Below, one piece after another: positions 1 to 18,084 of a stretch of 18,084 nucleotides of DNA (positions are counted from its first letter, which is position 1; every line of letters starts with the position of its first letter). The stretch is taken from IMG/VR virus record IMGVR_UViG_3300045988_008799, positions 1-18,084 of that record. One strand, written 5' to 3'. The DNA comes from a virus. A program made the translations under genes and the position numbers. The notes under the pieces are model-generated. The model ran no database searches. It had not been told where the DNA came from and saw nothing but the letters and a program-made list of their open reading frames with translations.

Positions 1-271
1 AGGAGGGGAGGGGCCCCAGCAGCTATCCTTTTCCTATAACTGCTCTATCCTGTGTTTTATATTGTTGTTGCTCTCTGTGTTTTTCATTGCCGTTCCTTCT
101 ATGTTGTTTGCTATTGTTTTCTGTGCTTCCCGTTTTGCTGCGTTCTTTGCTGTTGTCAGTTCCGCGTGTTGTTTTTGTCCCGTAGTCTAAGTGTGTTGTT
201 TTGTCGATGATCTAAGTGCGTGGTTTTATCGTGTTTTTTGTTTGCCTGGCGTGTCGTGTTTGGGGCATGGT
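1..271. repeat. Left inverted terminal repeat, perfect 271-bp copy
   Basis: The reverse complement of 17814..18084 matches 1..271 base for base (checked by hand in 60-nt blocks). The first mismatch is at 272 (a versus g). A degenerate extension runs to about 314. Confidence 0.97.
186..231 (+). repeat. Two 21-bp imperfect direct repeats inside the ITR (mirrored at 17854..17899)
   Basis: tctaagtgtgttgttttgtcg (186..206) versus tctaagtgcgtggttttatcg (211..231): 18/21 identical, with a 25-bp period. Confidence 0.8.
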
Positions 272-304
272 AGTATAGAACTATCAACCAATGGAACGGA
301 AAGG

Positions 305-680: not shown

Positions 681-752
681 TCCTCGCTAGTGTAATTGGT
701 GGTACGGCAGTCTTTGGAACTGTTTGTCTAGGTTCGATTCCTAGGCGGGGAG
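681..752 (+). tRNA. tRNA-Gln, anticodon UUG, no encoded CCA
   Basis: Hand-folded cloverleaf. Acceptor stem tcctcgc/gcgggga (7 bp, one G-U). D stem gtgt/gtac with loop aattggtg (GG present). Anticodon stem gcagt/actgt with loop c-t-TTG-g-a (U33, purine 37). 4-nt variable loop. T stem ctagg/cctag with loop ttcgatt. U8 and A14 are present. Confidence 0.85.
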
Positions 753-946
753 CGAATGGGTTGCGTAGGGTGGCCCGCTGATTATAAGGATGGTGGTTAT
801 CATGAAGCGTTTTCGTGATTTTTTTGCAGCATGTGTGGGAGTGGGTTAAGGTTGTTGCGTTATGGTTATTGATTGTAGGGGCTATTGTGTTGGGTTCTGT
901 GATTGGGCACTTGGTTATTGTTATCTAAGAAAGGACGTGTGAACGT

Positions 947-2508: not shown

Positions 2509-2946
2509 ATGGCTGACAACGAACTGACCGTAACGAACGGTAACAATTTTGCTGCGAACGGTGCTAATGCCGTCTCCCACTTCTTCGACACCACCACCAT
2601 GGACGGTAAGATGGCGCTCTATAACGCCATGCAGACCGCCGACAAGGTGGACGAACACCTCAACGAGCCGCTGCATGTGACCAACGTGCTGGCGCAGGCC
2701 ATCGAGGTGGCGAATCAGGAAACCGGTGAAATCAACTCTTCTACCCGCGTGGTTATTCACGCGGAGGAGGGTGACTTTGCCGCCGCCTCCCCCACGTTGG
2801 CGCACTCTTTTGGCAATTTGTTCGCCATTTTCGGCACGCCGGACACGTGGGCTTCGCCGCTGACTCTCAAGGTGGTGGAAAAGAAGAGCCGCCGCGGCTA
2901 CAAGTTCTTCGACCTTGAATTGGTGTCGGAGAACAAGCGCAAGTAG
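2509..2946 (+). CDS. Putative phage single-stranded DNA-binding protein (145 aa)
   Basis: RBS aaggaaagg. The pattern ALYNAM...V.NV......ETGE......RVVI....G.....S......L..IFG.P.....PL.LKV resembles phage SSB families of Gram-positive phages as I remember them. It sits immediately upstream of TP and PolB, as phi29 gene 5 does. Confidence 0.45.
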   Translation: MADNELTVTNGNNFAANGANAVSHFFDTTTMDGKMALYNAMQTADKVDEHLNEPLHVTNVLAQAIEVANQETGEINSSTRVVIHAEEGDFAAASPTLAHSFGNLFAIFGTPDTWASPLTLKVVEKKSRRGYKFFDLELVSENKRK

Positions 2947-3009
2947 CGCGATTGTCCACACCATATGATAGCATGGTAATGTCCCTATAGGGATGTTGCC
3001 GCCAAACCG

Positions 3010-3044
3010 CACCCCCGTCGTTTTCCATCCTTGCGGCGGGGGTG
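3010..3044 (+). promoter_or_regulatory. Intergenic stem-loop (11-bp stem, one G-U) between the SSB-like and TP genes
   Basis: cacccccgtcg (3010..3020) pairs with cggcgggggtg (3034..3044). The loop is 13 nt and is followed by ttt. Possibly an attenuator or terminator. Confidence 0.35.
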
Positions 3045-3067
3045 TTTCACACTCGCAAGGAGGGGTC

Positions 3068-4012
3068 GTGGCAAAACGTAAAACCAATCGACGCGCCAAC
3101 AATCTGAAACGCAATGCCGCAATCAGGTCGGCGCAGGTACGCAAGGAACGGGCGGTAAGGGATTACAGTACCGGACGCCTCCCCAAGCAAATCACCGAAA
3201 CGTTCCTGGGCAAACTCAGCGCCCAACAGCTTGAGCAGGTAGCACGACGTATCGGGCGGGAGTTCGGGGAACAACAGCAAGCCTTACGGGCGCGGGATAA
3301 CGAACCGTATCAGGTCGTGCCCGACGTGCATATTACGAAACTTGACCGTGAGATGGCGGCGCGTCCGCTGATATCCGACGCGGAAATCGCCGCAGCCCCG
3401 TCAAAACGCAGGAAGACATTACGGCAGCAGCAGCGCCGACGGGTTGAGGCGCGGCAGAAAATCAAACGCGCCCAGCGATTCGAGGCGCTGAGCATGGCCC
3501 AATATACCGTGGGCGAAGTACGCGAAATGGAACGCGCGGGCGAATCACCGTTCGACGTGTTGGGTACTCATACGGTTGGTGGTTCGGCGCGGGATGAACT
3601 CACGCGCAATCGCGCGAACGTGTTCGGTACGGAACGTGGCATAAGCCACGCGCGCGCGATGATACGCGACGGGAATCGTAAGGGACTTGAGCGGGAAATA
3701 TTGGAGTACACCGGGCTTGTGGGGCGTGCGCCATTGCGCGCGGGAACCAAGCGGATACCCGATAGTGAGGGTGTCTCGGATTTTGATAGGGTTGAACAAC
3801 AGCTAGAAGCGTTCGACTCTAGTATCGCGCAAAAAATCGCGTCTTTATCGAACCGCCAAAAACGATGGCTGATGAACAACACGAATTTTAGCACCGTAGT
3901 ACGTGAGGCGACATGGTATAATGACAAGACACATAAATGGGAAACCAAGGCGGACGCGGGCGACGTGGAGACACGACTCGATGAATGGATGACCAGCGCA
4001 CTACGGCACTAA
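3068..4012 (+). CDS. Terminal protein candidate (314 aa, Arg/Lys-rich)
   Basis: GTG 3068 follows aaggagg (3057..3063). The gene lies directly upstream of the protein-primed PolB, as phi29 gene 3 does. The N-terminus is very basic (AKRKTNRRANNLKRN) and there is an internal KRRKTLRQQQRRR. No sequence-level match was recognised. Confidence 0.55.
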   Translation: MAKRKTNRRANNLKRNAAIRSAQVRKERAVRDYSTGRLPKQITETFLGKLSAQQLEQVARRIGREFGEQQQALRARDNEPYQVVPDVHITKLDREMAARPLISDAEIAAAPSKRRKTLRQQQRRRVEARQKIKRAQRFEALSMAQYTVGEVREMERAGESPFDVLGTHTVGGSARDELTRNRANVFGTERGISHARAMIRDGNRKGLEREILEYTGLVGRAPLRAGTKRIPDSEGVSDFDRVEQQLEAFDSSIAQKIASLSNRQKRWLMNNTNFSTVVREATWYNDKTHKWETKADAGDVETRLDEWMTSALRH

Positions 4013-4024
4013 AAGGATGGAATT

Positions 4025-5485
4025 ATGCGAGAGCGTCGAACGGCGGCAACAGACGGCGCAACGCTGTTGACGGATGACGGCATGGAACCATTGACCGCCC
4101 ATGCCGTCATCCGCCTCACCATGCTCGATCACCATACGCGCGTATGGTGCGCCCACGGATGGCAGGATATCAAGCCCATAGCCGCCGAGTTACTGAAACG
4201 CCTCCCCTTGCAGTCGAACCCCAGCAAGGATGGCGTATGGGGAACATTCAACATCCGCGGTCACTTCTACAGTTTCCGCGTACGCATGGGCGGCATCACC
4301 GTGGACTTTCTGGACGTGCGCAACATCACACGCGACGAGGGTTTGCATGTTTCACGTGAAACATTCGGAGGAACCACCGACTTGGAAACCACATGGAACA
4401 TCGCACGGGAATGCGACGCGCTGGATCTCAAGGGCACTACCATAGCCTCGATGGCGATGGCCGACTATATCGGCGGGGATTATGCCGGGTTCAAACGTCA
4501 TTTTCCACCACTGCCCAAGGATGATTACCATCGGATGCGACCCGCCTACTATGGGGCGATAGTGTACAGCAAGGAGGGGGAATATGCGGACGCCACCAGT
4601 TGGGATGTCAACAGCCTGTACCCGGCCATCATGCGAGACATGCCCATGCCGACGGGAATGCCGGAATGGTATGACGGAAAGTATCAATATGATGCCGACC
4701 ATCCACTTCACATCGATGTCATCGATTTCGACGCAAGGTTAAGACCCGGCAAAACGGCCACGCTCACCAATATTCTGCCAGTGTGGGGATATGAGGGTGA
4801 ACGCTTGGATAGCACGCTGGGCGTCATCACCATGCCGGTCACGGATGTGGATTGGGAGACGCTCACGGAAAACTATGATGTGCACGTGTGGGAGCATGTC
4901 GGCGGTTGGAAGTTCCGCAAATCGCATGGACTCTATTACGACTATGTGGATAAATGGTTCCACGTGAAACAATCCGCGACCGGAGAGCGCAAACAGATGG
5001 CGAAACTGTTGCTTAACTCATTGGTGGGAAAGTTCGGCGCCTCACTCTACCGGCCCATGCTGCACCCCAAGCCCTCCGTTGACGGTGGCGTGGATTTCAC
5101 CGTGGACAAACCGGAGTCAACCAACTCACTCGCATGGCTGCCGACCGCCGCCTATGTGAACGCCTACGGCAGGCAGGTGCTGTCCCGTGCGATGAACGCG
5201 AACGCCGACCGCGTACTGTACGCCGACACCGATGGCATGATATTGGCGGGACTGGACGCGCCCGCAGGTGTTGAAACGGATGACCGGAAACTAGGCGCAT
5301 GGAAAAACGACCACACATATACGAAGCTCCGTATCCTCGGCAATCGCAAATACTGCGGCGTGGAAACGGATGGCGCCACGGTCATGCGGTTGAGCGGCGT
5401 CCATCGCGCGGCCCCCATACCCTACGACGAATTCCTACCGGGGTCACGTCATCGCAATGATGACGGCCATGGTTTCGTGCTATAA
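4025..5485 (+). CDS. Family-B protein-primed DNA polymerase (486 aa), phi29 type
   Basis: YxGG/A motif = YYGA (aa 175-178). Motif A = WDVNSLYPAIM (nt 4604..). Motif B = KLLLNSLVGKFG (nt 5003..5038). Motif C = YADTDG (nt 5219..). KxY = RKY (aa 441-443). GKYQYDADHPLHI closely parallels phi29 GKYVWDEDYPLHI. Confidence 0.95.
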   Translation: MRERRTAATDGATLLTDDGMEPLTAHAVIRLTMLDHHTRVWCAHGWQDIKPIAAELLKRLPLQSNPSKDGVWGTFNIRGHFYSFRVRMGGITVDFLDVRNITRDEGLHVSRETFGGTTDLETTWNIARECDALDLKGTTIASMAMADYIGGDYAGFKRHFPPLPKDDYHRMRPAYYGAIVYSKEGEYADATSWDVNSLYPAIMRDMPMPTGMPEWYDGKYQYDADHPLHIDVIDFDARLRPGKTATLTNILPVWGYEGERLDSTLGVITMPVTDVDWETLTENYDVHVWEHVGGWKFRKSHGLYYDYVDKWFHVKQSATGERKQMAKLLLNSLVGKFGASLYRPMLHPKPSVDGGVDFTVDKPESTNSLAWLPTAAYVNAYGRQVLSRAMNANADRVLYADTDGMILAGLDAPAGVETDDRKLGAWKNDHTYTKLRILGNRKYCGVETDGATVMRLSGVHRAAPIPYDEFLPGSRHRNDDGHGFVL

Positions 5486-5672: not shown

Positions 5673-6014
5673 ATGGACGATACCGAAAACAACGAGCCGG
5701 ACACCACGCCCGACACCGAGCCGGACGCCGGACCGGCCGACGATACCACGCCGAACCCGGAGCCCGAAACGCAGGACGATGGCGAACCGGAGGACGCGGG
5801 CGATGACAAGGACGCCGACATGGCCAACCGTCTCAGCGCCTTGGAGGCGACCGTGGCGGAACTATCCAAGACCATTGAGGCGATGCGCGACACGGCAGCC
5901 GACCACGTGTTGAACGACGGCCCGGACGCCGACGCGACGCCGGAATCGGCTGACATGACCGATGACGATTACAACGGCACCTACAGCACGTTCGATGACC
6001 TCTACGAAGACTGA
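5673..6014 (+). CDS. Putative scaffolding protein (113 aa, highly acidic)
   Basis: ATG 5673 follows aagggg. The gene is immediately upstream of the capsid gene, as phi29 gp7 is. It has an acidic P/D/E/T-rich N-terminal half followed by a helical segment, NRLSALEATVAELSKTIEAMRD. Confidence 0.5.
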   Translation: MDDTENNEPDTTPDTEPDAGPADDTTPNPEPETQDDGEPEDAGDDKDADMANRLSALEATVAELSKTIEAMRDTAADHVLNDGPDADATPESADMTDDDYNGTYSTFDDLYED

Positions 6015-6036
6015 CGATCAGAAAGGAACAACCATC

Positions 6037-7764
6037 ATGGCCACTACCCCAGTGGTGACGCCCAAGCAGCAGCTTAGGCCGCTCACTGAATTCAACAACG
6101 CCCAGATCCTCAACATGATTCGTAACGAGGCGTCCCCCGAATACCAGAGGCGCATGCCGTCCGCCACCCAGATGAACATGGATAGGCAGATGGCCACGCT
6201 CATGTCGTCCACTCAGTTGAAGAACGAGTTTTACGCGGCGCTGGTCAACCGCATTGGCGGCACCTATGTCAACACGTGGCGTTGGAACAATCCTCTTGGC
6301 GTGTTCCAGCGGGCTTCCCAGGCGTTTGGCGACACGTGGCAGGAAATCGCCGTGGGCATGCCGCTGGCTCAGGTGTACGACCCCGACGCGGAATACTTGG
6401 GCGCGGATAACTTCCGCAAGTGGAAAGTGGACGTGGACAGCCTCTACCACCGTCTGGACTTCGCCCACTGGTATCCGGCCACCACGGATGACAGGACATT
6501 GCAGCGCGCGTTCACCTCCGAAACCGGTTTGGCCTCGCTGACCTCGCAGATTCTCACGTCGTGCTATAACGCCGCCGAAGTGGACTTGTTCGAGGCCATG
6601 TGCCACCAGTTCGTCGAGTACGCGAAACTCGGCGGATATTACCGCGTCCACATGGACAACGACCTTAATGACATGGGGTCCACGGAGACTCAGGCGCGCG
6701 ACATGCTGCGGCAGATTCGCGCGTGGGCCGATACGCTGAAATTCGTGTCCACCCGGTATAATGCGCGTCACATGCCGACGTTCGCACGCCCCGACGAACT
6801 CGTGCTGTTCTGCTCCCCCGAAGTGAAGAGCGCACTGGACGTGCAGGGTCTGGCGACGGTGTTCCAGCGGACGGACGCCGAGCCGACCATCGACCGGATC
6901 ATCGTCATCCCGCAAGACCGATTCGGCATGGACGGCGTGCAGGCCATCCTGACCACCGACAAGTTCCTCATCGACATTCCGGTCATCAATGAGATGACGC
7001 AGCAGACCAACCCGGTCAACATCAACTCGGTCAACCATTACCTGCATGTGCAGCACATCATCAGCGTGAGCGGCTTCGCCCCGGCGGTGATGTTCTGGAC
7101 CGGCGCCGGGTCCACCGCCAAGATGGTGGCACCGACCGGTACGACCGCCAAGACACCGACATTCCAGCTTAAGCTGGCGATGTACGGTGGCGGTTCGGAA
7201 ACCCCGGGCAATGTGGCGCGTGGCGGCGCGGTGCAGGTCACCGCCGACACGACCATCGGCAACGACGGCACGGCCACGTTCCGCTCGGATGCGGTCGAAT
7301 ATCGCATCGGCGATACCGCCAAGCCCAAGAGCGATTACACGTACATCTCCCCGACCGGCGTGCTGGTGGTCGGCCTTGACGAGCCGAACACCACCATCCC
7401 GGTCACGGCGACCGCGCTGTACACCGACCCGGCAACCCCCGAAGTGCCGGGCACCGTGTCCGCCGCGCTGAGCGTGCCGGTGGTCGGTGACGGCGTCATC
7501 GGGTTCAACCCGTCGATTGTCGCGTCGATCGCCGTTGACGTCCCGAAGGTGACCACGGGTCATACGACGCAGGCGACCGCGACGGCCACCATGATCGACG
7601 GGCGCAAGGCCGACGTGACCGCGCAGGCCGCGTGGACTTCCGGCACCCCGACCAACGCCACGGTATCCGAATCGGGCGTAGTGTCCGGTGTCAAGTCCGG
7701 CAACTCCGATATTGCCGCCACGCTGTTCGGCGTGTCCGGCAAGAAGCAGGTGACCGTATCCTAG
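6037..7764 (+). CDS. Major capsid protein (575 aa), phi29 gp8-like, with C-terminal Ig-like (Big_2-type) domains
   Basis: ATG 6037 follows gaaagga. Blocks matching remembered gp8 sequence: ILNMIRN, NEFYAALVNRIG, NNPLGVF, CYNAAEVDLFEAM and ISVSGFAPAVMF. The C-terminal roughly 70 aa (GHTTQATATATMIDGRKADVTAQAAWTSG...ATVSESGVVSGVKSGNSDIAATLFGVSGKKQVTV) is a typical Big_2 pattern. Confidence 0.92.
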   Translation: MATTPVVTPKQQLRPLTEFNNAQILNMIRNEASPEYQRRMPSATQMNMDRQMATLMSSTQLKNEFYAALVNRIGGTYVNTWRWNNPLGVFQRASQAFGDTWQEIAVGMPLAQVYDPDAEYLGADNFRKWKVDVDSLYHRLDFAHWYPATTDDRTLQRAFTSETGLASLTSQILTSCYNAAEVDLFEAMCHQFVEYAKLGGYYRVHMDNDLNDMGSTETQARDMLRQIRAWADTLKFVSTRYNARHMPTFARPDELVLFCSPEVKSALDVQGLATVFQRTDAEPTIDRIIVIPQDRFGMDGVQAILTTDKFLIDIPVINEMTQQTNPVNINSVNHYLHVQHIISVSGFAPAVMFWTGAGSTAKMVAPTGTTAKTPTFQLKLAMYGGGSETPGNVARGGAVQVTADTTIGNDGTATFRSDAVEYRIGDTAKPKSDYTYISPTGVLVVGLDEPNTTIPVTATALYTDPATPEVPGTVSAALSVPVVGDGVIGFNPSIVASIAVDVPKVTTGHTTQATATATMIDGRKADVTAQAAWTSGTPTNATVSESGVVSGVKSGNSDIAATLFGVSGKKQVTVS

Positions 7765-7773
7765 TGGTATGAT

Positions 7774-7801
7774 GGGAGGGTAGCCGGTTGGCTACCCTCT
7801 C
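7774..7801 (+). terminator. Stem-loop 1 downstream of the capsid gene (12-bp stem, GGTT loop)
   Basis: gggagggtagcc pairs with ggctaccctctc (one G-U). It begins 10 nt after the capsid stop codon. Confidence 0.45.
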
Positions 7802-7820
7802 TCACGGTGTGACGCAAGTC

Positions 7821-7859
7821 AAGGCCCGGAGCGCAAACCACGTGAGCGTTCCGGGCCTT
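7821..7859 (+). terminator. Stem-loop 2 downstream of the capsid gene (14-bp stem)
   Basis: aaggcccggagcgc (7821..7834) pairs with gcgttccgggcctt (7846..7859), one G-U, with an 11-nt loop. Confidence 0.45.
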
Positions 7860-7877
7860 GTTCATACCGGAGGCTGG

Positions 7878-10178
7878 ATGATGATTGATGATATCAACCC
7901 GTATGCGGAGGCTAATTTTTCATGGGCGGAATGGACGCCCAACACCACGCTGAAACTCTGCCGTGTCCCGTGGGATGCATCCTATCGGGATGTCGTCCGG
8001 TTTGTTTCACGTGAAACACAACGGGAATGGTTCGATACACTGGATGGCGTGGAATGCCGCCCGGCGACCATGCATATCTTCGGTGCCCCCGTGCGAATCG
8101 ACATGCCATTCAACCAAGCGTCGGACTACAATTATCTTGTGGCCGTCAATGACTATCCCGACTTGGAATCGCCACGCGCATGGTATTACTTCATCGAATC
8201 CGTGGAATACATCAACGCGCATACCACACAGCTCACGCTTATGCTTGACGTATGGCAGAGTTTCCAGCATGACGTGACGTTCGGCAGTTGCTATGTGACG
8301 CGCGGGCATATCGGCGTCGCCAACGAACACCAGTGGGATGATTATGGGCGTACCGCTCTGGCGCTGCCGGAGGGGCTGGATACCGGCGCGGAAACCGTCA
8401 TCGCCTCCCAGTCGTATACGGCACTGATGTCCAGCAAGCCCGCGCAACCCGGTTTCAATTCGCCTACCTTGGATTATGGTGTCATCGTCGTGGCCACGAC
8501 CGACCTTGTGGCGTCGGGCGGCAGCGCTGAAAAACCGTCACTGAAAACCGCGCAAGGCTCGCAATTCGAGAATCAATCCAACGGTGCGGGAATCTATTAT
8601 TTCGATACCGCCGATGATTTGACGCGCATCATGCAGGCGGGCAGTTCGTTCCCGTGGGTCACTCAGGGTATCACGGCGATTTACGCCATTCCCAAAATCA
8701 GCGCCGACTATATCGCCGACGCGGGGCGAGAGGTAACGCAATTTTTCGGTACCGGCACGGCCGGCGTGATCAAGGGACACGCATACACGTTCCTATGGGA
8801 GGCCAAGAGCGATAACCGGTATGATGATATCGTTTCCATCAGGAATTTTCGCGATAATTTCAACATTCCCAGCCGGTATCGCAATCTGAAAAAACTGCAA
8901 TGCTACCCGTATAGCGTCGTGGAATGCTCATGCCTGAATGGGTCGAACGTCATCTATCGGCCCGAGGATATCCAGTCCAATGACCTGACCATCCGTGAAA
9001 CGTGGAATTATGCGCCCCCGTCCCCGCGTTTGAACTTCTACCCGGTGGACTATAATACGGGTGGCGCGGCCACGGTCGATTCCCCGTCCGGGAATGGTAC
9101 CGGGTTGCCGATCGATGGCGGGGAAATGCTGAACGTCAGTTTCGGGATTACGAACTTCCCCCAGTTCATGGTGGTGAACAACGGGGCTTCGCTTGCCATG
9201 GCCAACAGCGCGTCCACTCGCGCTTACGCGGAACAGTCGGCAGGGTGGGCGCAGCAAAAAGCGACCATGAGCGCCGCCAACACACTATCCCAGGCTGGCG
9301 TAGGCATTCGTACCCAGCAGCAGCTTACGCAGCTCGGCGTGACCAACCGGAACGCGTTGAACGCCATCGCAGCCAACTCGCTCAACCAGTCGCTGGCCAT
9401 CGGACAGGCGAACACCAACGCCATGACCGACCTGAACGTGTCCCAGAACAACGCGCAGTCGGCGTGGGGGTTGATATCCAATGCCGGGAATGCGATCATG
9501 AACGCGGACGTGGCCGGACTGATCGGCGGCACGATCAACGGCATAGTCCAGAACGGCATCACCAATACAGGACTGCACGCAAGCCGTGATATCGCCAACG
9601 ACACGGCGGCGGCGAACACCGCCAACAGTGTGGCGACCAATGCGGCGCAAACCTCACAGGCGAACACCTACGCGCAACGCGCCCAACAGATCCAGGGCAC
9701 ATCCAGCGCCCTCATGGCCGGACAGAACTATCGGCTGGCCACGCGCTTTGCCGAGGGCGACTACGAAAACGCGATCGCCGGAATCAACGCGCAAGTGCAG
9801 CAAATGCAGATGACCCCGCCGACCACAAGCGGCGCGGCGGGCGGCGATTCGTTCAACCTTGCCAACGGCATCATGGGCGTGCTGGTTCGTTTCCGTACAT
9901 GCGCCCCCAGCGCGCTGCGCAGCGTCGGGGAGTTCATGTTACGGTTCGGGTATTTCGTCCAGCGGTTCATCACCCCGCCCGCAAGCCTGCAATGTATGGA
10001 AAAGTTCACGTACTGGCAGATGCAGGAATGCTACATCAGGGGCACACTGCCCGAGCAGGCGCGATTGACCATCAAGGGCATGTTCGAGCGTGGCGTGACC
10101 GTATGGGACAAGCCGGAGTATATCGGCATGACCGACTGGGCGGACAACGATCCACTGCCGGGCATCGGCTACGAGTGA
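7878..10178 (+). CDS. Tail knob / distal tube protein (766 aa), phi29 gp9-like
   Basis: ATG 7878/7881 follows ggagg (7869..7873). The N-terminal pattern LCRVPWDASYRDVVRF.S...Q..WF ... NYLVAVND......AWYYFIESVEYIN..TTQLTLMLDVWQSF.HDVTFG.CYVTRGH parallels remembered gp9 sequence (VPFSNDYKNTRWF...WFYAFVTELEFKN...DVLQTWMFD..F.ESFIVREH). Confidence 0.8.
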   Translation: MMIDDINPYAEANFSWAEWTPNTTLKLCRVPWDASYRDVVRFVSRETQREWFDTLDGVECRPATMHIFGAPVRIDMPFNQASDYNYLVAVNDYPDLESPRAWYYFIESVEYINAHTTQLTLMLDVWQSFQHDVTFGSCYVTRGHIGVANEHQWDDYGRTALALPEGLDTGAETVIASQSYTALMSSKPAQPGFNSPTLDYGVIVVATTDLVASGGSAEKPSLKTAQGSQFENQSNGAGIYYFDTADDLTRIMQAGSSFPWVTQGITAIYAIPKISADYIADAGREVTQFFGTGTAGVIKGHAYTFLWEAKSDNRYDDIVSIRNFRDNFNIPSRYRNLKKLQCYPYSVVECSCLNGSNVIYRPEDIQSNDLTIRETWNYAPPSPRLNFYPVDYNTGGAATVDSPSGNGTGLPIDGGEMLNVSFGITNFPQFMVVNNGASLAMANSASTRAYAEQSAGWAQQKATMSAANTLSQAGVGIRTQQQLTQLGVTNRNALNAIAANSLNQSLAIGQANTNAMTDLNVSQNNAQSAWGLISNAGNAIMNADVAGLIGGTINGIVQNGITNTGLHASRDIANDTAAANTANSVATNAAQTSQANTYAQRAQQIQGTSSALMAGQNYRLATRFAEGDYENAIAGINAQVQQMQMTPPTTSGAAGGDSFNLANGIMGVLVRFRTCAPSALRSVGEFMLRFGYFVQRFITPPASLQCMEKFTYWQMQECYIRGTLPEQARLTIKGMFERGVTVWDKPEYIGMTDWADNDPLPGIGYE

Positions 10179-10190
10179 TACAATGGTGAC

Positions 10191-11141
10191 ATGAGTAGGT
10201 CTAAAAGGAATCGGGTTGACGGCGCATTGCATCCGCGCGGCAACTACGCCAAAGCACGCGCCGCCTCCCTTGACATGATGTATTATCATCTGTTGGCGGA
10301 ACTGGCGTTGAACCGTTTCAGTTGGCGCGGATTGCCGCCGACCGTAGACGAGCGATGGCTGGAAATGTGCCTATGCGAATACGGTTGCGCATTGTTTTTC
10401 GAGGACAAGCGCATAGGCCGGTTTTTGGTGACGCAAGCCGGATATCAAGGCCGGTTGAATGTGTACGATAACCCGACGTGTTTCGAGCCGGTGGGCGTCA
10501 ACTACCATTACCGGCAGCTCAAGGCCGGACGTGAATGCATCCCGATTTGGGATAATCGCATGCGCATGTCGTTCAAGGATGTCCTATGGCAGTATGCGCG
10601 ACGGTTGGCTGACATTGATAAAGCGTATGACGTGAATCTGGAGAGCCTGAAGCTTCCGACCATCATCACCGCCGACCCGCGTACCAAACTGACCGTACAG
10701 AACATGCTTCAGCAGCGGCAGGACGGTCAGGATTACATCATCGGATACGACTCACTGGATCCCGGCAGCATGTTCCAACCGTGGCCCAACACCACGCCCT
10801 ACCTCTTGGACAAGTTCATTCAACAGAAGACGCAGGTGACCAACGAGGTGCTGGGATACCTGGGCATCCAGTCCAGCGGTACGGAGAAAAAGGAACGGCT
10901 CATATCCGACGAGGTGGCGCAAGCCAACGAGAAGGTAGACGTGTTCCGCCTGAGTTTCCTTAAGGCGCGGCAGGCGGCGGCAACGGAAATCAACCGGTTG
11001 TGGCCGCAATTGAACATCTGGGTGGAGTACGCGGACGCACAAAGCTCCGGCGTGCCGAACGCGCTCGATTCCAGCGCCAGCGGTACGACGGATATTGACA
11101 TGCCCGCATCATATGACGCGGGTATCGGAGGTGTATTATAA
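10191..11141 (+). CDS. Portal / upper collar connector (316 aa), phi29 gp10-like
   Basis: Size matches gp10 (about 309 aa). Motifs NRFSWRGLPPTVDERWLE (gp10: LFEWENLPPTINPSFLE) and TEKKERLISDEVAQANE (gp10: LEKKERMVTDEVSSNDE). Confidence 0.9.
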   Translation: MSRSKRNRVDGALHPRGNYAKARAASLDMMYYHLLAELALNRFSWRGLPPTVDERWLEMCLCEYGCALFFEDKRIGRFLVTQAGYQGRLNVYDNPTCFEPVGVNYHYRQLKAGRECIPIWDNRMRMSFKDVLWQYARRLADIDKAYDVNLESLKLPTIITADPRTKLTVQNMLQQRQDGQDYIIGYDSLDPGSMFQPWPNTTPYLLDKFIQQKTQVTNEVLGYLGIQSSGTEKKERLISDEVAQANEKVDVFRLSFLKARQAAATEINRLWPQLNIWVEYADAQSSGVPNALDSSASGTTDIDMPASYDAGIGGVL

Positions 11142-11932
11142 TGCAGGATTTTACCGCCTATGCGATGACCACGCCCGGCGAGTACACCGAAACGTTGGGC
11201 AATCTCATTGCGTTCGGATACGATACGGACGATAAACTGCATCTGAGCGCCGACTATTACCCGATTTACGACGAGAGCCATCGCGCGGAGTTGAACGAGA
11301 AGATCATCCGCCATTACGCGTTGCGGGAAATCGGGCAGGAAACCGCGCAGCAGTTCGTTTTTTATCTGGGTATGACGATGGCGGAAATCATGCCCTATTT
11401 CAACGAACGCTACCGCACGCTCGATATGGAATATGATCCGTTGGACTCCATGGACATGACCACGGATAGCGAGAGCGGCAGCGAATCCCAGTCCTCGGGC
11501 AAAGCGTCCAGCACGCAGGATTCGACCAGCTCAAGCACGTCCAAGTCGGACAATAGCAGCACCACCACGTCCAGGAGTTTCGACAGTGACGTGCCGCAAA
11601 CCGGCGTCGTGGGCGACTTCGCCCGCTACGCGAGCCATGCGAACGAATCGCAGGCGGATAGCGGCGGCACCGCGTCCAGTTCACAGGATTCGACCAGCCA
11701 CACCACCGCCCAGAGCGCCACCGACTATCAGCATGATTCAAGCAATTCCAAGGGCAAGAGTCACGTGACCGGGCGCAGCCAGAGCGCTATGAGCCTGATT
11801 CAGGAATACCGTAACGCCATCATCAACGTGGACATGGAGGTCGTGCGCAGTCTCGAACCGTGCTTCATGCAAGTGTGGGGGTCTTATGATACAATTTTCA
11901 GTAACTGCCATAATTTTGGAGAATGGGAGTAA
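11141..11932 (+). CDS. Lower collar protein (263 aa), phi29 gp11-like
   Basis: TAATG overlap with the portal stop, and ggagg lies 9 nt upstream. The position directly after the portal gene fits gp11. Conserved-looking ends (PIYDESHRAELNEKIIRHYALREIGQET..F; EYRNAIINVDMEV) flank a Ser/Thr-rich central segment. Confidence 0.7.
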   Translation: MQDFTAYAMTTPGEYTETLGNLIAFGYDTDDKLHLSADYYPIYDESHRAELNEKIIRHYALREIGQETAQQFVFYLGMTMAEIMPYFNERYRTLDMEYDPLDSMDMTTDSESGSESQSSGKASSTQDSTSSSTSKSDNSSTTTSRSFDSDVPQTGVVGDFARYASHANESQADSGGTASSSQDSTSHTTAQSATDYQHDSSNSKGKSHVTGRSQSAMSLIQEYRNAIINVDMEVVRSLEPCFMQVWGSYDTIFSNCHNFGEWE

Positions 11933-13955: not shown

Positions 13956-15170
13956 ATGGTAGACGTGCAAGCATGGTTGGAACGGACCCAAAACCAATAT
14001 TGGGACATGGATGGTAGTTATGGCGCCCAATGCTGGGACTTGTGGGCGAAATACTGCATGGATAATTACAATCTGTCATTAGGTGATTGCATCACCCCGA
14101 CGGGCTACGCGGAGGGCAATTACACCATGTTTCCCACCACGGCGGCGGTGGGGCGCGTGTTCGAGAGGAAGGACGCCGATTATACGCCCGGCATGGGCGA
14201 CGTGGTGTTTTGGACGTTCGGCAGTCGGATCTACACCGGCAGTCACGTGGCTATCGTATGGGGTGGCATCCAGGGGGACAATATCGATGTTCTGACGCAG
14301 AACCCGACGCCTGCCGTTCACCAGTTGTTACCGCTTATGAAGGGTTCGCAGCTACTCGGCTATCTGCATCCCACGGCATTGCCGGAACCGCCGGAATCCG
14401 GCGATAATCCGACCGGCGGCAATAATCCGGGCGTGGGTGTGGATGGCGATATCTCCGCGTGGATACAATTGCAGGGTGATAATCTCATTTATCACAGTGG
14501 CTCGGGCACGACGTCATCCCAAGCCGTTTTCTACAAGGCGAGCGCCCAAACGTGGGTGTATCGCGGTGCCAAGGGTCAGCCGGACGCCGACCAGGGGCAG
14601 GGCACGCCGAGCGTGGGCGATGGGGAAAGCTCCTACGCGCTTTACGTCATCGGTACCGTTGAATCATCGTTGCGTTGGGATGCCGTCGAGTCCAATGGTC
14701 AGGGTATCGGTATCGCGCAATGGAGTTTCGGCAGGCGTTTGCAGGTGTTGAACGCGATGAAGGCGGTGGACGCCGTAGGGTATGAGGCGTTTGCCGCCGC
14801 CGCGCCAGGCATCGCCGCGCTTATGGAGTCGGGTGGCACGTTCGACAGGGCGATGACCGGTAGTGAGGTTGCGGCGTTCCGGACGTGGGCGCGGCGTGCG
14901 GAATCTCGGCAGGGGCAGCGGGACCGGTTTGCGGAGGATTATGAGGGTTACCCGCAGACGTATGATGATGCGAAGATGCAGATATTATGGACGTGCGCCT
15001 ATCATCAAAGTCCGGCGGGCGCGTTGAACGTGCCGCATGCCTCGACCCTTGCGCAATTGTATGGCAATATCCTCGGTACGTCCCCGTTCGGGTCGTATGG
15101 GACGCGCTATAATACCGCCTATTCGTTGTTGAATGTGTGGGATGGCGTCAGTGCGCCGCCGAATTTCTGA
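13956..15170 (+). CDS. Tail-associated peptidoglycan hydrolase (404 aa): N-terminal CHAP peptidase plus C-terminal lytic-transglycosylase/lysozyme-like domain (gp13 analogue)
   Basis: CHAP signature: YGAQCWDL (Cys codon at 14031) and GSHVAIVW (His near 14244). A Pro/Gly linker follows. The C-terminal GTVESSLRWDAVESNGQGIGIAQW resembles the SLT E-S...G-hydrophobic-x-Q motif. The position matches phi29 gp13. Confidence 0.8.
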   Translation: MVDVQAWLERTQNQYWDMDGSYGAQCWDLWAKYCMDNYNLSLGDCITPTGYAEGNYTMFPTTAAVGRVFERKDADYTPGMGDVVFWTFGSRIYTGSHVAIVWGGIQGDNIDVLTQNPTPAVHQLLPLMKGSQLLGYLHPTALPEPPESGDNPTGGNNPGVGVDGDISAWIQLQGDNLIYHSGSGTTSSQAVFYKASAQTWVYRGAKGQPDADQGQGTPSVGDGESSYALYVIGTVESSLRWDAVESNGQGIGIAQWSFGRRLQVLNAMKAVDAVGYEAFAAAAPGIAALMESGGTFDRAMTGSEVAAFRTWARRAESRQGQRDRFAEDYEGYPQTYDDAKMQILWTCAYHQSPAGALNVPHASTLAQLYGNILGTSPFGSYGTRYNTAYSLLNVWDGVSAPPNF

Positions 15171-15185
15171 CATCATGGTGAACCG

Positions 15186-16328
15186 GTGGATATCTACCGG
15201 TTGTCGCTATTGTATGGTAGTGTGGATGATATGGAGAGGCTGTTAGGCGAAGGCGATTACTATGATTATGGGCGCGTGTTGTCCTATCACGCGCCTTGGA
15301 TGTTCGTCATCGGCGCGCGCGGCCTCGGTAAGACCTATGGCGCTAAGAAACTGGTCATCGGTGACTGGATTAAAAAACGCTGGCAGTTCATCTACCTACG
15401 CCGGACGGCGGAGGAGCAGAAGAACAAGGGCACATGGTTCGCGGATATTGCCGAACAGTACCCCGACCTGGAGTTTCGGGTGTCCGGCAATCAGGCGGAA
15501 TGCCATTGGTTGGATGACAGGGACGCCATCATCGACAAGCATGGCAGGAAACGCCCGACATGGCATGTCATGGGGTATTTTATCGCACTGTCGCAGGCCG
15601 GACAGGTCAAATCGGTGGCCTACCCCAAGGTACGCACGATGATTTTTGACGAAATATTCCCCGACAACATGCGTTATCTCGGCGGAGAGGTCACGGCGCT
15701 GGAGGAATTCTACAATACGGTGGACCGTTGGAATGATAGGGTGAGGGTTATCATGTGCAGCAATGCCGTAACCCTCGCTAACCCGTATTTTAGCGCGTTC
15801 AATATCAACCTGAAACCACAATTGGATAATCACACGCAATACCAACGGTATTGCGATGGGTTTATTATGGTGGAACTGGCGGATTATGGCGGGTTCAGCG
15901 CCAAAGTCGCAACGTCGAAATTCGGACGATTTTTACGCAAATATGATGAGAATTATGCGAATTATGCAATCGATAATGATTTTAGGGATAACGCTGATAC
16001 TCTCATCAGTGATTTTAACAACGCCGGTTATGCATTCACGTTAAGAACCACGGAATACGGTATTTTCAACGTATACCAGCAATTAAGCGACACCGATGAA
16101 GTATTGTACATCATCACTAAGAAACAGCCTAAAATCACACGTGATTTTACGTTTGATTATCGACTGGTCGATAATGATTGCATGATGCTCAAACGTTCCG
16201 ATGATATGACGCAGAAAATATTAAACGCCTATCGCGTCGGACGGTTACGGTTCGAAACACCGCAGATCAAAGCGGAATTCAGTATGATTCTTGGCGGCTT
16301 GTTACAACAATCAGGCATAAGAAAGTGA
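15186..16328 (+). CDS. DNA packaging (encapsidation) ATPase, phi29 gp16-like (380 aa from GTG; 365 aa if ATG 15231)
   Basis: LSYHAPWMFVIGARGLGKTYG (Walker A, 15312..15335) versus gp16 LSYDRILNFVIGARGIGKSY. RTMIFDEI (Walker B, D/E at 15648..15653) versus STIVFDEF. VRVIMCSNAVTLANPYF versus VRCICLSNAVSVVNPYF. Confidence 0.93.
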   Translation: MDIYRLSLLYGSVDDMERLLGEGDYYDYGRVLSYHAPWMFVIGARGLGKTYGAKKLVIGDWIKKRWQFIYLRRTAEEQKNKGTWFADIAEQYPDLEFRVSGNQAECHWLDDRDAIIDKHGRKRPTWHVMGYFIALSQAGQVKSVAYPKVRTMIFDEIFPDNMRYLGGEVTALEEFYNTVDRWNDRVRVIMCSNAVTLANPYFSAFNINLKPQLDNHTQYQRYCDGFIMVELADYGGFSAKVATSKFGRFLRKYDENYANYAIDNDFRDNADTLISDFNNAGYAFTLRTTEYGIFNVYQQLSDTDEVLYIITKKQPKITRDFTFDYRLVDNDCMMLKRSDDMTQKILNAYRVGRLRFETPQIKAEFSMILGGLLQQSGIRK

Positions 16329-16335
16329 GGAATCA

Positions 16336-16722
16336 ATGATGGAAACCTTATTTTACGAAATTCTAGCCGTATTCGTGTTCATTATTATGGACTATATTAC
16401 CGGCGTCATCAACGCAGTAATGCACGGCAAACTGTCCAGCACGAAAATGCGGGAAGGACTGGGGCATAAATTCGCGTATCTTTGCGTGTTTTTCGTTGCG
16501 TGGTTCATCGACTTTGAAATGGGCCACATCGACATTGGTTTCCATACCACGTTAACGCCGCTCGTTACCGTGGGTATCGTGCTGATCGAGTTGTCCAGCA
16601 TCATCGAAAATATCGGCAAAATCAATCCCGAGCTGGCAGAAGCAAAGTTCATGAAAATTTTCACCGAATGTCACAAGGAGGATGATGGCAATGGCGATAC
16701 GGACACCACCGGAGGCCGTTGA
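16336..16722 (+). CDS. Holin (128 aa), Phage_holin_4_1 / TcdE-like
   Basis: Three hydrophobic segments plus the family pattern DYITGV..A.....L.S.....G...K and IELSSIIENIGK, followed by a charged C-terminal tail. Confidence 0.8.
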   Translation: MMETLFYEILAVFVFIIMDYITGVINAVMHGKLSSTKMREGLGHKFAYLCVFFVAWFIDFEMGHIDIGFHTTLTPLVTVGIVLIELSSIIENIGKINPELAEAKFMKIFTECHKEDDGNGDTDTTGGR

Positions 16723-17704: not shown

Positions 17705-17813
17705 CCTGACATGATAGCAAGAAGACACTTCACGCACTTCTTCCGAAACTCAGATTACAACGTTCATAACAACCACCATCCTATCCGTTCCCATTGGCTG
17801 ATAATTCCATACC

Positions 17814-18084
17814 ACCATGCCCCAAACACGACACGCCAGGCAAACAAAAAACACGATAAAACCACGCACTTAGATCATCGACAAAACAACACACTTAGAC
17901 TACGGGACAAAAACAACACGCGGAACTGACAACAGCAAAGAACGCAGCAAAACGGGAAGCACAGAAAACAATAGCAAACAACATAGAAGGAACGGCAATG
18001 AAAAACACAGAGAGCAACAACAATATAAAACACAGGATAGAGCAGTTATAGGAAAAGGATAGCTGCTGGGGCCCCTCCCCTCCT
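17814..18084. repeat. Right inverted terminal repeat, perfect 271-bp copy
   Basis: Reverse complement is identical to 1..271. Degenerate similarity continues inward to about 17770 (5 substitutions plus a 1-nt indel). Confidence 0.97.

Follow-up and report, generated by a model that had tools for sequence, protein, structure and literature searches.

A phi29-like phage DNA polymerase with a shortened and degenerate exonuclease-like domain

A protein-primed-type polymerase with an intact polymerase half

The IMG/VR record IMGVR_UViG_3300045988_008799, a stretch of 18,084 bp that was analyzed as a whole and is here called the window, is the complete linear genome of a phi29-like podovirus. At positions 4025..5485 on the plus strand, it carries the gene for a phi29-like family B DNA polymerase of the protein-primed type, 486 amino acids (aa) in length, which was identified by Pfam, PHROG, PDB, and model matches. 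The N-terminal part of this enzyme (aa 1 to 155; 4025..4489, plus strand) is a degenerate exonuclease-like (DnaQ-fold) domain that is about 50 aa shorter than that of phi29, as indicated by profile alignment with hhalign, by structure-element matching, and by the ratio of nonsynonymous to synonymous substitution rates (dN/dS). We consider it likely that the enzyme is the replicase of this phage, that its exonuclease domain has decayed with proofreading lost or crippled, and that the domain has been kept for noncatalytic roles.

The polymerase matches Pfam PF03175 (DNA_pol_B_2) with 116.3 bits (cut-off, 25.8 bits) and PHROG 1907 (1.5e-50), and its aa 155 to 444 correspond to residues 206 to 501 of phi29 DNA polymerase (PDB 1xhx; E = 1.7e-44; about 34% identity). 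On the plus strand, invariant alignment columns place motif A, D194-VNSLYP, with the catalytic Asp D194 and the steric-gate Tyr199, at 4604..4624. It is followed by a TPR1-like insertion (about aa 206 to 302; 4640..4930), by motif B, K327-LLLNSLVGKFG (5003..5038), as aligned, and by a TPR2-like insertion (about aa 342 to 365; 5048..5119) that is aligned to phi29 residues 398 to 420 and modeled as a beta-hairpin at 345 to 361. The alignments and the site table then place motif C, Y399-ADTDG, with the catalytic residues D401 and D403, at 5219..5236, and the site table gives a variant of the KxY motif, R441-K442-Y443, at 5345..5353. In phi29, TPR1 is the terminal-protein-binding subdomain, and TPR2 acts as the processivity and strand-displacement wedge. 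The first-pass annotation of this DNA, which was made from the sequence alone, had described a polymerase half that resembles phi29 motif for motif, with a retained TPR1-like insertion and with motif A at an unusually early position. The 1xhx match and the alignments bear this out: the spacing from the motif A Asp to the motif B Lys is 133 aa (134 in phi29), the motif A Asp is D194 (D249 in phi29), and the insertion aligns continuously with phi29 residues 261 to 358.

The residues D194, D401, D403, Tyr199, K327, N331, G335, and Y443 are all present, and motifs A, B, C, and KxY are recognizable with two variations, V334 in motif B and R441 in KxY, the latter with an adjacent Lys. The motif B Tyr (phi29 Y390) is replaced by Val334; V, I, T, or A occupies this position in 26 of 27 representatives of the short clade described below, and 89 of the 99 exo-intact sequences have Tyr there. 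In KxY, the Lys (phi29 K498) is replaced by Arg441, as it mostly is in the short clade, while it is Lys in all 99 exo-intact sequences. Phi29 Y390 has been implicated in nucleotide selection. Compared with phi29, the KxY-to-thumb segment and the C-terminal strand are also shorter. From its sequence and its model, the enzyme is a protein-primed-type PolB with an intact polymerase half in which both TPR1 and TPR2 are kept.

A shortened exonuclease-like domain

The Pfam match covers only aa 131 to 340, which correspond to profile positions 169 to 389. Positions 7 to 168 of the profile stay unaligned in the query, whereas two controls, phi29 and P0120 (an exo-intact full-length relative that is 47% identical to phi29), align from position 7 in the ExoII region. 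Thus, the N-terminal domain is truly shorter and noncanonical, and the absence of a canonical DxE, Nx2-3(F/Y)D, or Yx3D motif that was noticed in the first pass is upheld by the match beginning at position 169. The profile hidden Markov model (HMM) comparison that had been suggested as a check has two sides: the Pfam profile fails over positions 7 to 168, but profile-profile alignment with hhalign matches the segment to the canonical exonuclease domain (99.4% probability; E = 2.7e-21) and places Asp residues at exonuclease carboxylate sites.

An AlphaFold2 model of the 486-aa polymerase has a predicted local distance difference test (pLDDT) value of 91 and a predicted template-modeling score of 0.88, with pLDDT values of 89 to 95 over the N-terminal domain, and it predicts a DnaQ/RNase H-like fold N-terminal to the polymerase domain. 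With the whole model, including the N-terminal domain, Foldseek finds 1xhx and 2pyj at template-modeling (TM) scores of 0.83 to 0.85 over 557 to 574 alignment columns. The best structural match in BFVD is the polymerase of phage BadAztec1 (TM scores, 0.86/0.89; root-mean-square deviation, 2.6). Four deletions inside the domain account for the roughly 50 missing aa; they affect the beta1-beta3 hairpins, which are shortened, as well as two loops and the segment between Kx2hxA and ExoIII. N-terminal truncation was considered as the source of the shortening and rejected in favor of these internal deletions.

Motif register and the relic exonuclease site

For the structural register, AlphaFold models of the query and of P0120 (pLDDT, 93) were matched element by element via their secondary-structure strings; residue equivalences are given in canonical phi29 numbering. 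The secondary-structure elements of the two proteins correspond one to one: beta1 (query 4 to 9, P0120 2 to 13), beta2 (13 to 16, 16 to 26), beta3 (19 to 22, 29 to 36), alphaA (25 to 32, 39 to 46), beta4 (37 to 42, 53 to 57), alphaB (46 to 59, 60 to 73), three strands that end at D97 in the query and at D122 in P0120, and the ExoIII helix (119 to 132, 161 to 183), which is 9 residues shorter in the query. The P0120 model has D7 and E9 in beta1, D63 in alphaB, and Y166 and D170 in the long ExoIII helix.

This register differs from the one proposed in the first pass, which had been anchored on a resemblance of RVWCAHGW to the phi29 segment RVWAYGY. All the residues quoted there do lie at the positions given (V28-I-R30, RVWCAHGW at 39 to 46, N76 to H80, W124 to R128, and D131), but the anchor is wrong. 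HTRVWC (37 to 42) forms strand beta4, which comes after alphaA and is followed by helix alphaB, and MAFFT, hhalign, and AlphaFold element matching agree that this is the ExoII position; the resemblance to RVWAYGY is therefore coincidental. In two MAFFT and two hhalign profile-profile alignments, HTRVWCAHGWQD pairs with phi29 ADLYFHNLKFD (ExoII). The assignments derived from the RVW anchor, namely, V28/R30 as ExoI, N76 to H80 as ExoII, and W124 to R128 as ExoIII, fall with it.

With the corrected register, four relics are discernible on the plus strand. The ExoI relic is T9-D10-G11-A12-T13 (4049..4063), where a 42-sequence MAFFT alignment pairs TAATDGAT with YTADFET. D10 is the probable equivalent of phi29 D12, the Glu of D-x-E (phi29 E14) has become A12, and T13 keeps the Thr of phi29 T15, so that the site reads D10-G11-A12. 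The ExoII relic is R39-VWCAHGWQ-D48 (4139..4168; MAFFT, hhalign, and model elements). D48 preserves phi29 D66, while H44 or G45 stands in place of N62, and the position of F65 is taken by Q47 or falls in a gap; H44-G-W-Q-D48 thus retains the Asp of N-x2-3-(F/Y)-D without its Asn and aromatic residue. The relic of the (S/T)Lx2h motif for single-stranded DNA (ssDNA) binding is D97-V-R-N-I (4313..4327; alignments), in which the invariant D97 preserves phi29 D121 and V98 and R99 replace S122 and L123. The ExoIII relic is G115-GTT-D119-LETTWNIAR (4367..4408), where D119 preserves phi29 D169. The hhalign alignment has a 27-residue gap directly before T117-T118-D119; phi29 K143, Y148, and Y165 fall into this gap, so that the segment with K143 of Kx2hxA and Y148 is deleted and the position of the ExoIII Tyr lies in the deletion or at G115.

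In sum, the domain has lost one of four metal ligands as well as the general-base Tyr and the catalytic Lys (both by deletion), and four of five mapped ssDNA ligands are gone (N62, F65, S122, and L123), with T15 retained as T13. Of the features of an active DEDDy (DnaQ-like) proofreading exonuclease, the fold is kept and every sequence signature is lacking. Three of the four metal-binding carboxylate positions are still Asp (D10, D48, and D119), and these are kept under selection (see below); hence, the site is a decayed relic rather than absent. The first-pass claim that the exonuclease carboxylates are missing therefore stands for E14 and for the canonical motifs, but not for the three Asp residues that are found by alignment. 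The equivalence of D10 and phi29 D12 is the least certain of these assignments and is put forward as probable; it is suggested by the 42-sequence MAFFT alignment, by the strand count before alphaA, and by the relative P0122, which reads W-D-G-E-T at this site.

Conservation and selection in close relatives

We examined the window together with 80 related IMG/VR contigs (81 open reading frames [ORFs]), computed dN/dS over 400 random pairs of the 77 ORFs that have exactly 486 codons, and assessed conservation in 84 protein relatives and codon usage at the relic Asp positions in 79 genes. A short N-terminus could in principle be an artefact of faulty sequencing or assembly, of a frameshift, or of a misplaced start, or the gene could be a decaying pseudogene, and the first pass had named a frameshift or a hidden longer N-terminus as a point to check. 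None was found. The upstream ORF stops 12 nt before the polymerase ATG, which is preceded by a Shine-Dalgarno-like AAGGA; the ORF is intact, with 485 to 489 codons, in all 81 sequences; and more than 80 metagenomic protein clusters of exactly 486 aa and 77 to 96% identity occur on 17- to 19-kb contigs, one of them labeled as a Bifidobacterium breve metagenome-assembled genome. dN/dS is 0.084 for aa 1 to 155, 0.083 for aa 156 to 260, and 0.067 for aa 261 to 486 (mean dS, 0.6 to 0.8), and 45% of the positions in the N-terminal domain are invariant in the 84 variants, compared with 42% in the remaining protein. Because the short form is clade wide, shared by cultured viable phages, and under purifying selection, it is not an error. 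Nothing in favor of an artefact was found, the sole related annotation problem being the start in BD811P2 (see below), and an explanation that this conservation already refutes has a practically negligible probability.

The mean pairwise dS of 0.6 to 0.8 in the polymerase gene also marks the lineage as very diverse (77 contigs, mostly from IMG dataset 3300045988). This diversity is compatible with a high mutation supply, of which it is not proof.

Within the close relatives, D10, G11, C42-A-H-G-W46, D48, D97, and D119 are invariant. Both Asp codons are in use at D48 (GAT in 31 genes and GAC in 48) and at D119 (GAC in 54 and GAT in 25), and it follows that these two residues are held by selection at the amino acid level. 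Such conservation invites the view that the site is still an active, noncanonical 3′-5′ exonuclease, with metal binding by D10, D48, and D119 and with another residue in the roles of the lost Glu, Tyr, and Lys; candidates for the latter are H44, E121, and the conserved NITRD segment. H44, D97, and D104 share the invariance of the three Asp residues in 79 to 84 close relatives, with both synonymous codons used, and the motifs CAHGWxD and DxETTWNI are conserved down to about 48% identity. Even so, position 12 is A, V, T, or S in the 84 relatives and never acidic, the segment that bears the Tyr and the Lys is physically deleted, and the ssDNA ligands are replaced. Moreover, phi29 mutants in metal-binding exonuclease residues also lose strand displacement (PMC6351526), which gives a noncatalytic reason for keeping D10, D48, and D119. 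Together with the distribution of the relic residues among more distant relatives, these points make a still active exonuclease unlikely in comparison with a decayed one.

Distribution among relatives

A short-clade profile, searched against 1.84 billion representative proteins, returned 10,197 homologues. The best 150 of these, together with phi29, the query, and further short-clade clusters, were aligned to the canonical HMM, and 151 sequences longer than 440 aa were analyzed. This hmmalign procedure leaves the short clade's N-terminal domain unaligned and is informative only for classing full-length relatives. A complete D-E-D-D set is present in 99 of the 151 sequences (mostly full length), nearly all of which also have T15, N62, F/Y65, S122, K143, Y148, and Y165; in full-length relatives, the residues D, E, T, N, F, D, K, Y, Y, and D are invariant. 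The short clade consists of 27 sequences of 454 to 496 aa (the query and clusters at up to 50% identity) and is monophyletic in a neighbor-joining tree of the polymerase domain.

Degenerate Exo motifs are not limited to this clade. About 19 further metagenomic representatives of 516 to 584 aa have them and occupy several other positions in the same tree (P0133, P0135, P0138, P0165, P0177, P0185, P0212, P0222, P0223, P0228, P0229, P0237, P0246, P0247, P0257, P0259, P0260, P0262, and P0264). Because they lie outside the short clade, the exonuclease motifs appear to have been lost several times independently in phi29-like polymerases, as far as this tree suggests. Accordingly, of the first-pass proposal of a proofreading-deficient replicase that would be unusual for its family, the deficiency is retained as the most likely consequence of the residue losses, but the trait is less unusual than had been thought. 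Six further sequences lack ExoI only, and their starts are probably truncated or miscalled. For the exo-degenerate lineages P0229 and P0138, no cultured relatives closer than about 32% identity were found.

All 11 Bifidobacterium phi29-like records among the deposited phage genomes are of the short type (BP1, BD811P1-3, BadAztec1/2/4, and BadAargau2); the hosts of these cultured phages are B. pseudocatenulatum, B. dentium, and B. asteroides, and their polymerases are annotated as DNA polymerase or hypothetical protein. The full Exo signature is present in Microbacterium phage Evcara, Curtobacterium phage Prophecy, Glutamicibacter phage Voltaire, and Clostridium phage CI55P1. In Bifidobacterium phage BD811P2 (GenBank accession no. 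OP172659), an in-frame upstream extension at about 3309-3386, starting VDETIRFTDGTEL, agrees with the BP1 enzyme at its N-terminus and brings back the conserved T-D-G motif. The annotated polymerase start in this phage (445 aa) seems to lie about 26 codons too far downstream.

Inside the short clade, the relic residues decay independently of one another. D48 is replaced by T, S, E, A, I, L, or V and D119 by V, A, K, P, or others, while P0122 retains D-x-E-T (D-G-E-T) and no other relic residue. D10, D48, and D/E119 occur together only in the subclade of the query, down to about 48% identity, and the residue at D119 is Pro in P0121 and Glu in P0090. The remaining short clade, including all cultured Bifidobacterium phages, has lost both D48 and D119, which means that the short clade as a whole does without these two residues. 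We regard this pattern in the divergent members, with D48 and D119 drifting to T, S, V, A, K, or P and another lineage keeping D-G-E-T, as typical of a dead site, and it is a further point against a conserved noncanonical activity.

Genome ends and gene context

The genome ends are inverted terminal repeats (ITRs). Their 294-nt arms (left, 1..294, a putative replication origin; right, 17791..18084) are 99% complementary, with bases 1 to 271 identical. The ITRs start with AGGAGGGGAGGGG, an internally reiterated end that could allow initiation by a sliding-back or jumping-back mechanism. Base composition is strongly skewed in the left 1 kb (GC skew, +0.30; AT skew, -0.37).

Upstream of the polymerase gene, a phi29-type ssDNA-binding protein (SSB) is encoded at 2509..2946 on the plus strand (Pfam Phi29_Phage_SSB, 9.3e-15; PHROG 6243). 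Between the SSB and polymerase genes lies an ORF for a 339-aa protein (2993..4012, plus strand) that we call a putative terminal protein by position only: in phi29 and in Evcara and Prophecy, the gene at this place is annotated as the terminal protein gene, the phi29 protein having 266 aa. It has no match in Pfam, PHROG, or NCBIfam, and BLASTP against the phi29 and Prophecy terminal proteins gave no significant hit. The top local segment of that nonsignificant comparison sets EAFDS276 opposite the priming-serine motif EEFDS232 of phi29; because S276 is Ala in 6 of 39 relatives, it is not put forward here as the residue used for priming. This ORF and the polymerase gene share a reading frame, with one stop codon and 12 nt between them, in 33 of the 35 relatives inspected.

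Downstream of the polymerase gene are the genes for a phi29-type major capsid protein of 600 aa (5962-7764, plus strand), the tail knob (7788-10178), the connector (10191-11141), the lower collar (11141-11932), a CHAP/lysozyme tail or lysis protein (13956-15170), a gp16-type packaging ATPase (15186-16328), and a holin (16336-16722). The major capsid protein shows a weak Big_2 Ig-like match, under the Pfam cut-off, at its C-terminus (aa 525 to 599), beyond the part with the phi29-type capsid fold. Opposite the capsid gene, the other strand has an ORF of 576 aa (5833-7563), which probably results from high GC content. The packaging ATPase is gp16 like, yet Rfam gave no hit in the window to the family of the phi29 prohead RNA (pRNA) at the gathering threshold; the unannotated region at about 750-1200 may harbor a divergent pRNA. 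The left early region also contains a tRNA-Gln gene with anticodon TTG (681-753, plus strand; Rfam, 51 bits; ARAGORN); according to a 2024 review, tRNA genes are absent from most phi29-related phages. No close DNA relative of the window was found among 50,697 deposited phage genomes. The host of the phage is most likely Bifidobacterium.

Four early ORFs (191-664, 1219-1647, 1619-2161, and 2158-2478) have no assignable function, and they leave some room for the idea that proofreading is provided in trans, by a separate exonuclease encoded in one of them or by a host exonuclease, in which case fidelity would not be reduced. Trans-acting proofreading subunits, such as DnaQ, exist in bacteria. However, we know of no trans-proofreader for any protein-primed polymerase, the four ORFs match no exonuclease family in Pfam, PHROGs, or NCBIfam, and a comparison of 191-664, 1219-1647, and 1619-2161 with PDB sequences gave no exonuclease match. 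Searches of the genome against Pfam, PHROGs, NCBIfam, and PDB sequences and a scan for Walker A motifs revealed neither a separate exonuclease nor a helicase. A processive, tunnel-enclosed polymerase would also be expected to leave the primer end little accessible to another enzyme. We therefore regard proofreading in trans as very improbable.

Proposed function of the decayed domain

The most plausible account thus remains that of a phi29-like replicase whose exonuclease domain has decayed and persists as a scaffold. Because its polymerization site is intact and TPR1 and TPR2 are retained, replication would be primed at the ITRs by a terminal protein (presumably the product, 339 aa long, of the upstream ORF), and the enzyme would then copy the 18 kb processively with strand displacement. 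With the E14 equivalent, the Tyr, the Lys, and the ssDNA-binding residues gone, the exonuclease would be inactive or reduced by orders of magnitude, and from the sequence and the model, loss of 3′-5′ proofreading, or a reduction of this extent, is the most likely consequence. The changes to V334 and R441 in the polymerase half may be co-adaptations to this loss.

As for the persistence of the domain, it would form the downstream-template tunnel with TPR2, support strand displacement and DNA binding, and stabilize the polymerase and its contacts with the terminal protein and DNA. In phi29, the exo-TPR2 tunnel has a role in strand displacement, the exonuclease-domain residues Y101 and T189 contact the template (Y101 by stacking), and D121 stabilizes the primer end (PMC6351526). 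A scaffold role fits with the conservation of these contacts, since Y82 (phi29 Y101) and T139 (phi29 T189) do not vary among the aligned polymerases, and D97 (phi29 D121) hardly does. Fidelity would then come from nucleotide selection alone. Given an insertion discrimination of 10^4 to 10^6, as reported for phi29 (PMC6351526), we estimate roughly 0.02 to 2 errors per copy of 18 kb, which would be tolerable for a genome of this size.

Four points weigh against this account. (i) D10, D48, D119, and H44 are strictly conserved in the subclade of the query despite synonymous turnover, and therefore something at the former active site is still selected. (ii) The equivalence of D10 and phi29 D12 depends on one MAFFT alignment, element order, and one relic sequence, and hhalign gives this segment low confidence. 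(iii) No similarity to known terminal proteins could be detected for the 339-aa ORF upstream, and protein priming itself is something that we infer. (iv) A divergent trans-acting exonuclease among the unannotated early ORFs could have been missed by sequence searches.

The first of these points can also be read as a sign that the former exonuclease site has been repurposed. In that case, a selected constellation (D10, H44, W46, D48, D97, R103-D104, D119, E121, and W124-N125) would hold a metal ion or a nucleic acid or terminal-protein ligand that couples the exonuclease domain to TPR2 for strand displacement, or it would support a new, noncanonical catalysis. We find such a new function conceivable, if rather doubtful; if true, the enzyme would be a natural separation-of-function version of the strand-displacement loss seen in phi29 metal-ligand mutants.

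Phi29-type polymerases are the textbook single-subunit, high-fidelity, strand-displacing replicases, and their exonuclease is regarded as integral. Our findings suggest that a whole clade of phages of the gut genus Bifidobacterium, in humans and honeybees, replicates with a compact enzyme that lacks the canonical proofreading site. If the loss of proofreading is true, per-base error rates would be set by nucleotide selection alone, which bears on the conspicuous microdiversity of these phages and on their evolution against host defenses. The clade also offers a natural experiment that separates the structural roles of the exonuclease domain (template tunnel, strand displacement, and terminal-protein handling) from catalysis, and small strand-displacing polymerases that are naturally exonuclease deficient are of interest where engineered exo-minus phi29 variants serve today.

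Comparison with known systems

The genome is of the same type as those of phi29-like phages: it is linear and about 18 kb long, has ITRs (294 nt here and 6 nt in phi29), and shares the order of SSB, putative terminal protein, polymerase, phi29-type capsid, connector, tail knob, and gp16 ATPase. The polymerase shares with phi29 DNA polymerase (gp2; PDB 1XHX, 2PYJ, and 2EX3) the overall fold, motifs A and C, TPR1, and TPR2. In the exo-intact phi29-like group with which it was compared (Salasmaviridae, the actinophages Evcara, Prophecy, and Voltaire, and Clostridium phage CI55P1), the enzymes have 572 to 575 aa, whereas the window polymerase has 486. Phi29, Evcara, CI55P1, Prophecy, and Voltaire all have the Glu of ExoI, the Asn and Phe of ExoII, the Tyr of ExoIII, the Lys of Kx2hxA, and the Ser and Leu of (S/T)Lx2h, which are gone in the window enzyme. 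Our searches of the open-access literature turned up no description of a phi29-like phage polymerase as exonuclease degenerate, and a 2024 review of 2,115 phi29-related genomes describes the phi29 enzyme with both activities (PMC11476376).

The closest parallels are the cultured Bifidobacterium phages (BadAztec1/2/4, BadAargau2, BD811P1-3, and BP1), whose polymerases have the same short architecture (469 to 471 aa), with the exonuclease region likewise unaligned to the canonical HMM. They are assigned to the same monophyletic clade via the metagenomic relatives P0097 and P0098, which stand in for the cultured proteins in that neighbor-joining tree. They are 35 to 37% identical to the window enzyme and have lost the equivalents of D48 and D119, whereas three relic Asp residues are kept here, and the lineage of the window is known from metagenomes only.

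Outside phages, the pPolB of mavirus-type virophages and the pPolB-S1H of polinton-like viruses are protein-primed PolBs in which the exonuclease domain is lost or reduced to a remnant, and their authors suggest a lower fidelity (PMC11161782). These enzymes differ in that they belong to eukaryotic viruses, have had the exonuclease domain almost wholly removed, and have gained a helicase; in the window enzyme, the domain keeps its fold and is under strong purifying selection, and the searches described above revealed no helicase in the genome. Decay of the exonuclease is already a known phenomenon in family B polymerases. In eukaryotic Pol alpha and Pol zeta and in archaeal PolB variants, the exonuclease domain is inactivated and the DnaQ-fold domain is kept as a structural module. 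These enzymes are RNA/DNA primed and work with accessory factors, whereas the window polymerase is a stand-alone viral replicase of the protein-primed type.

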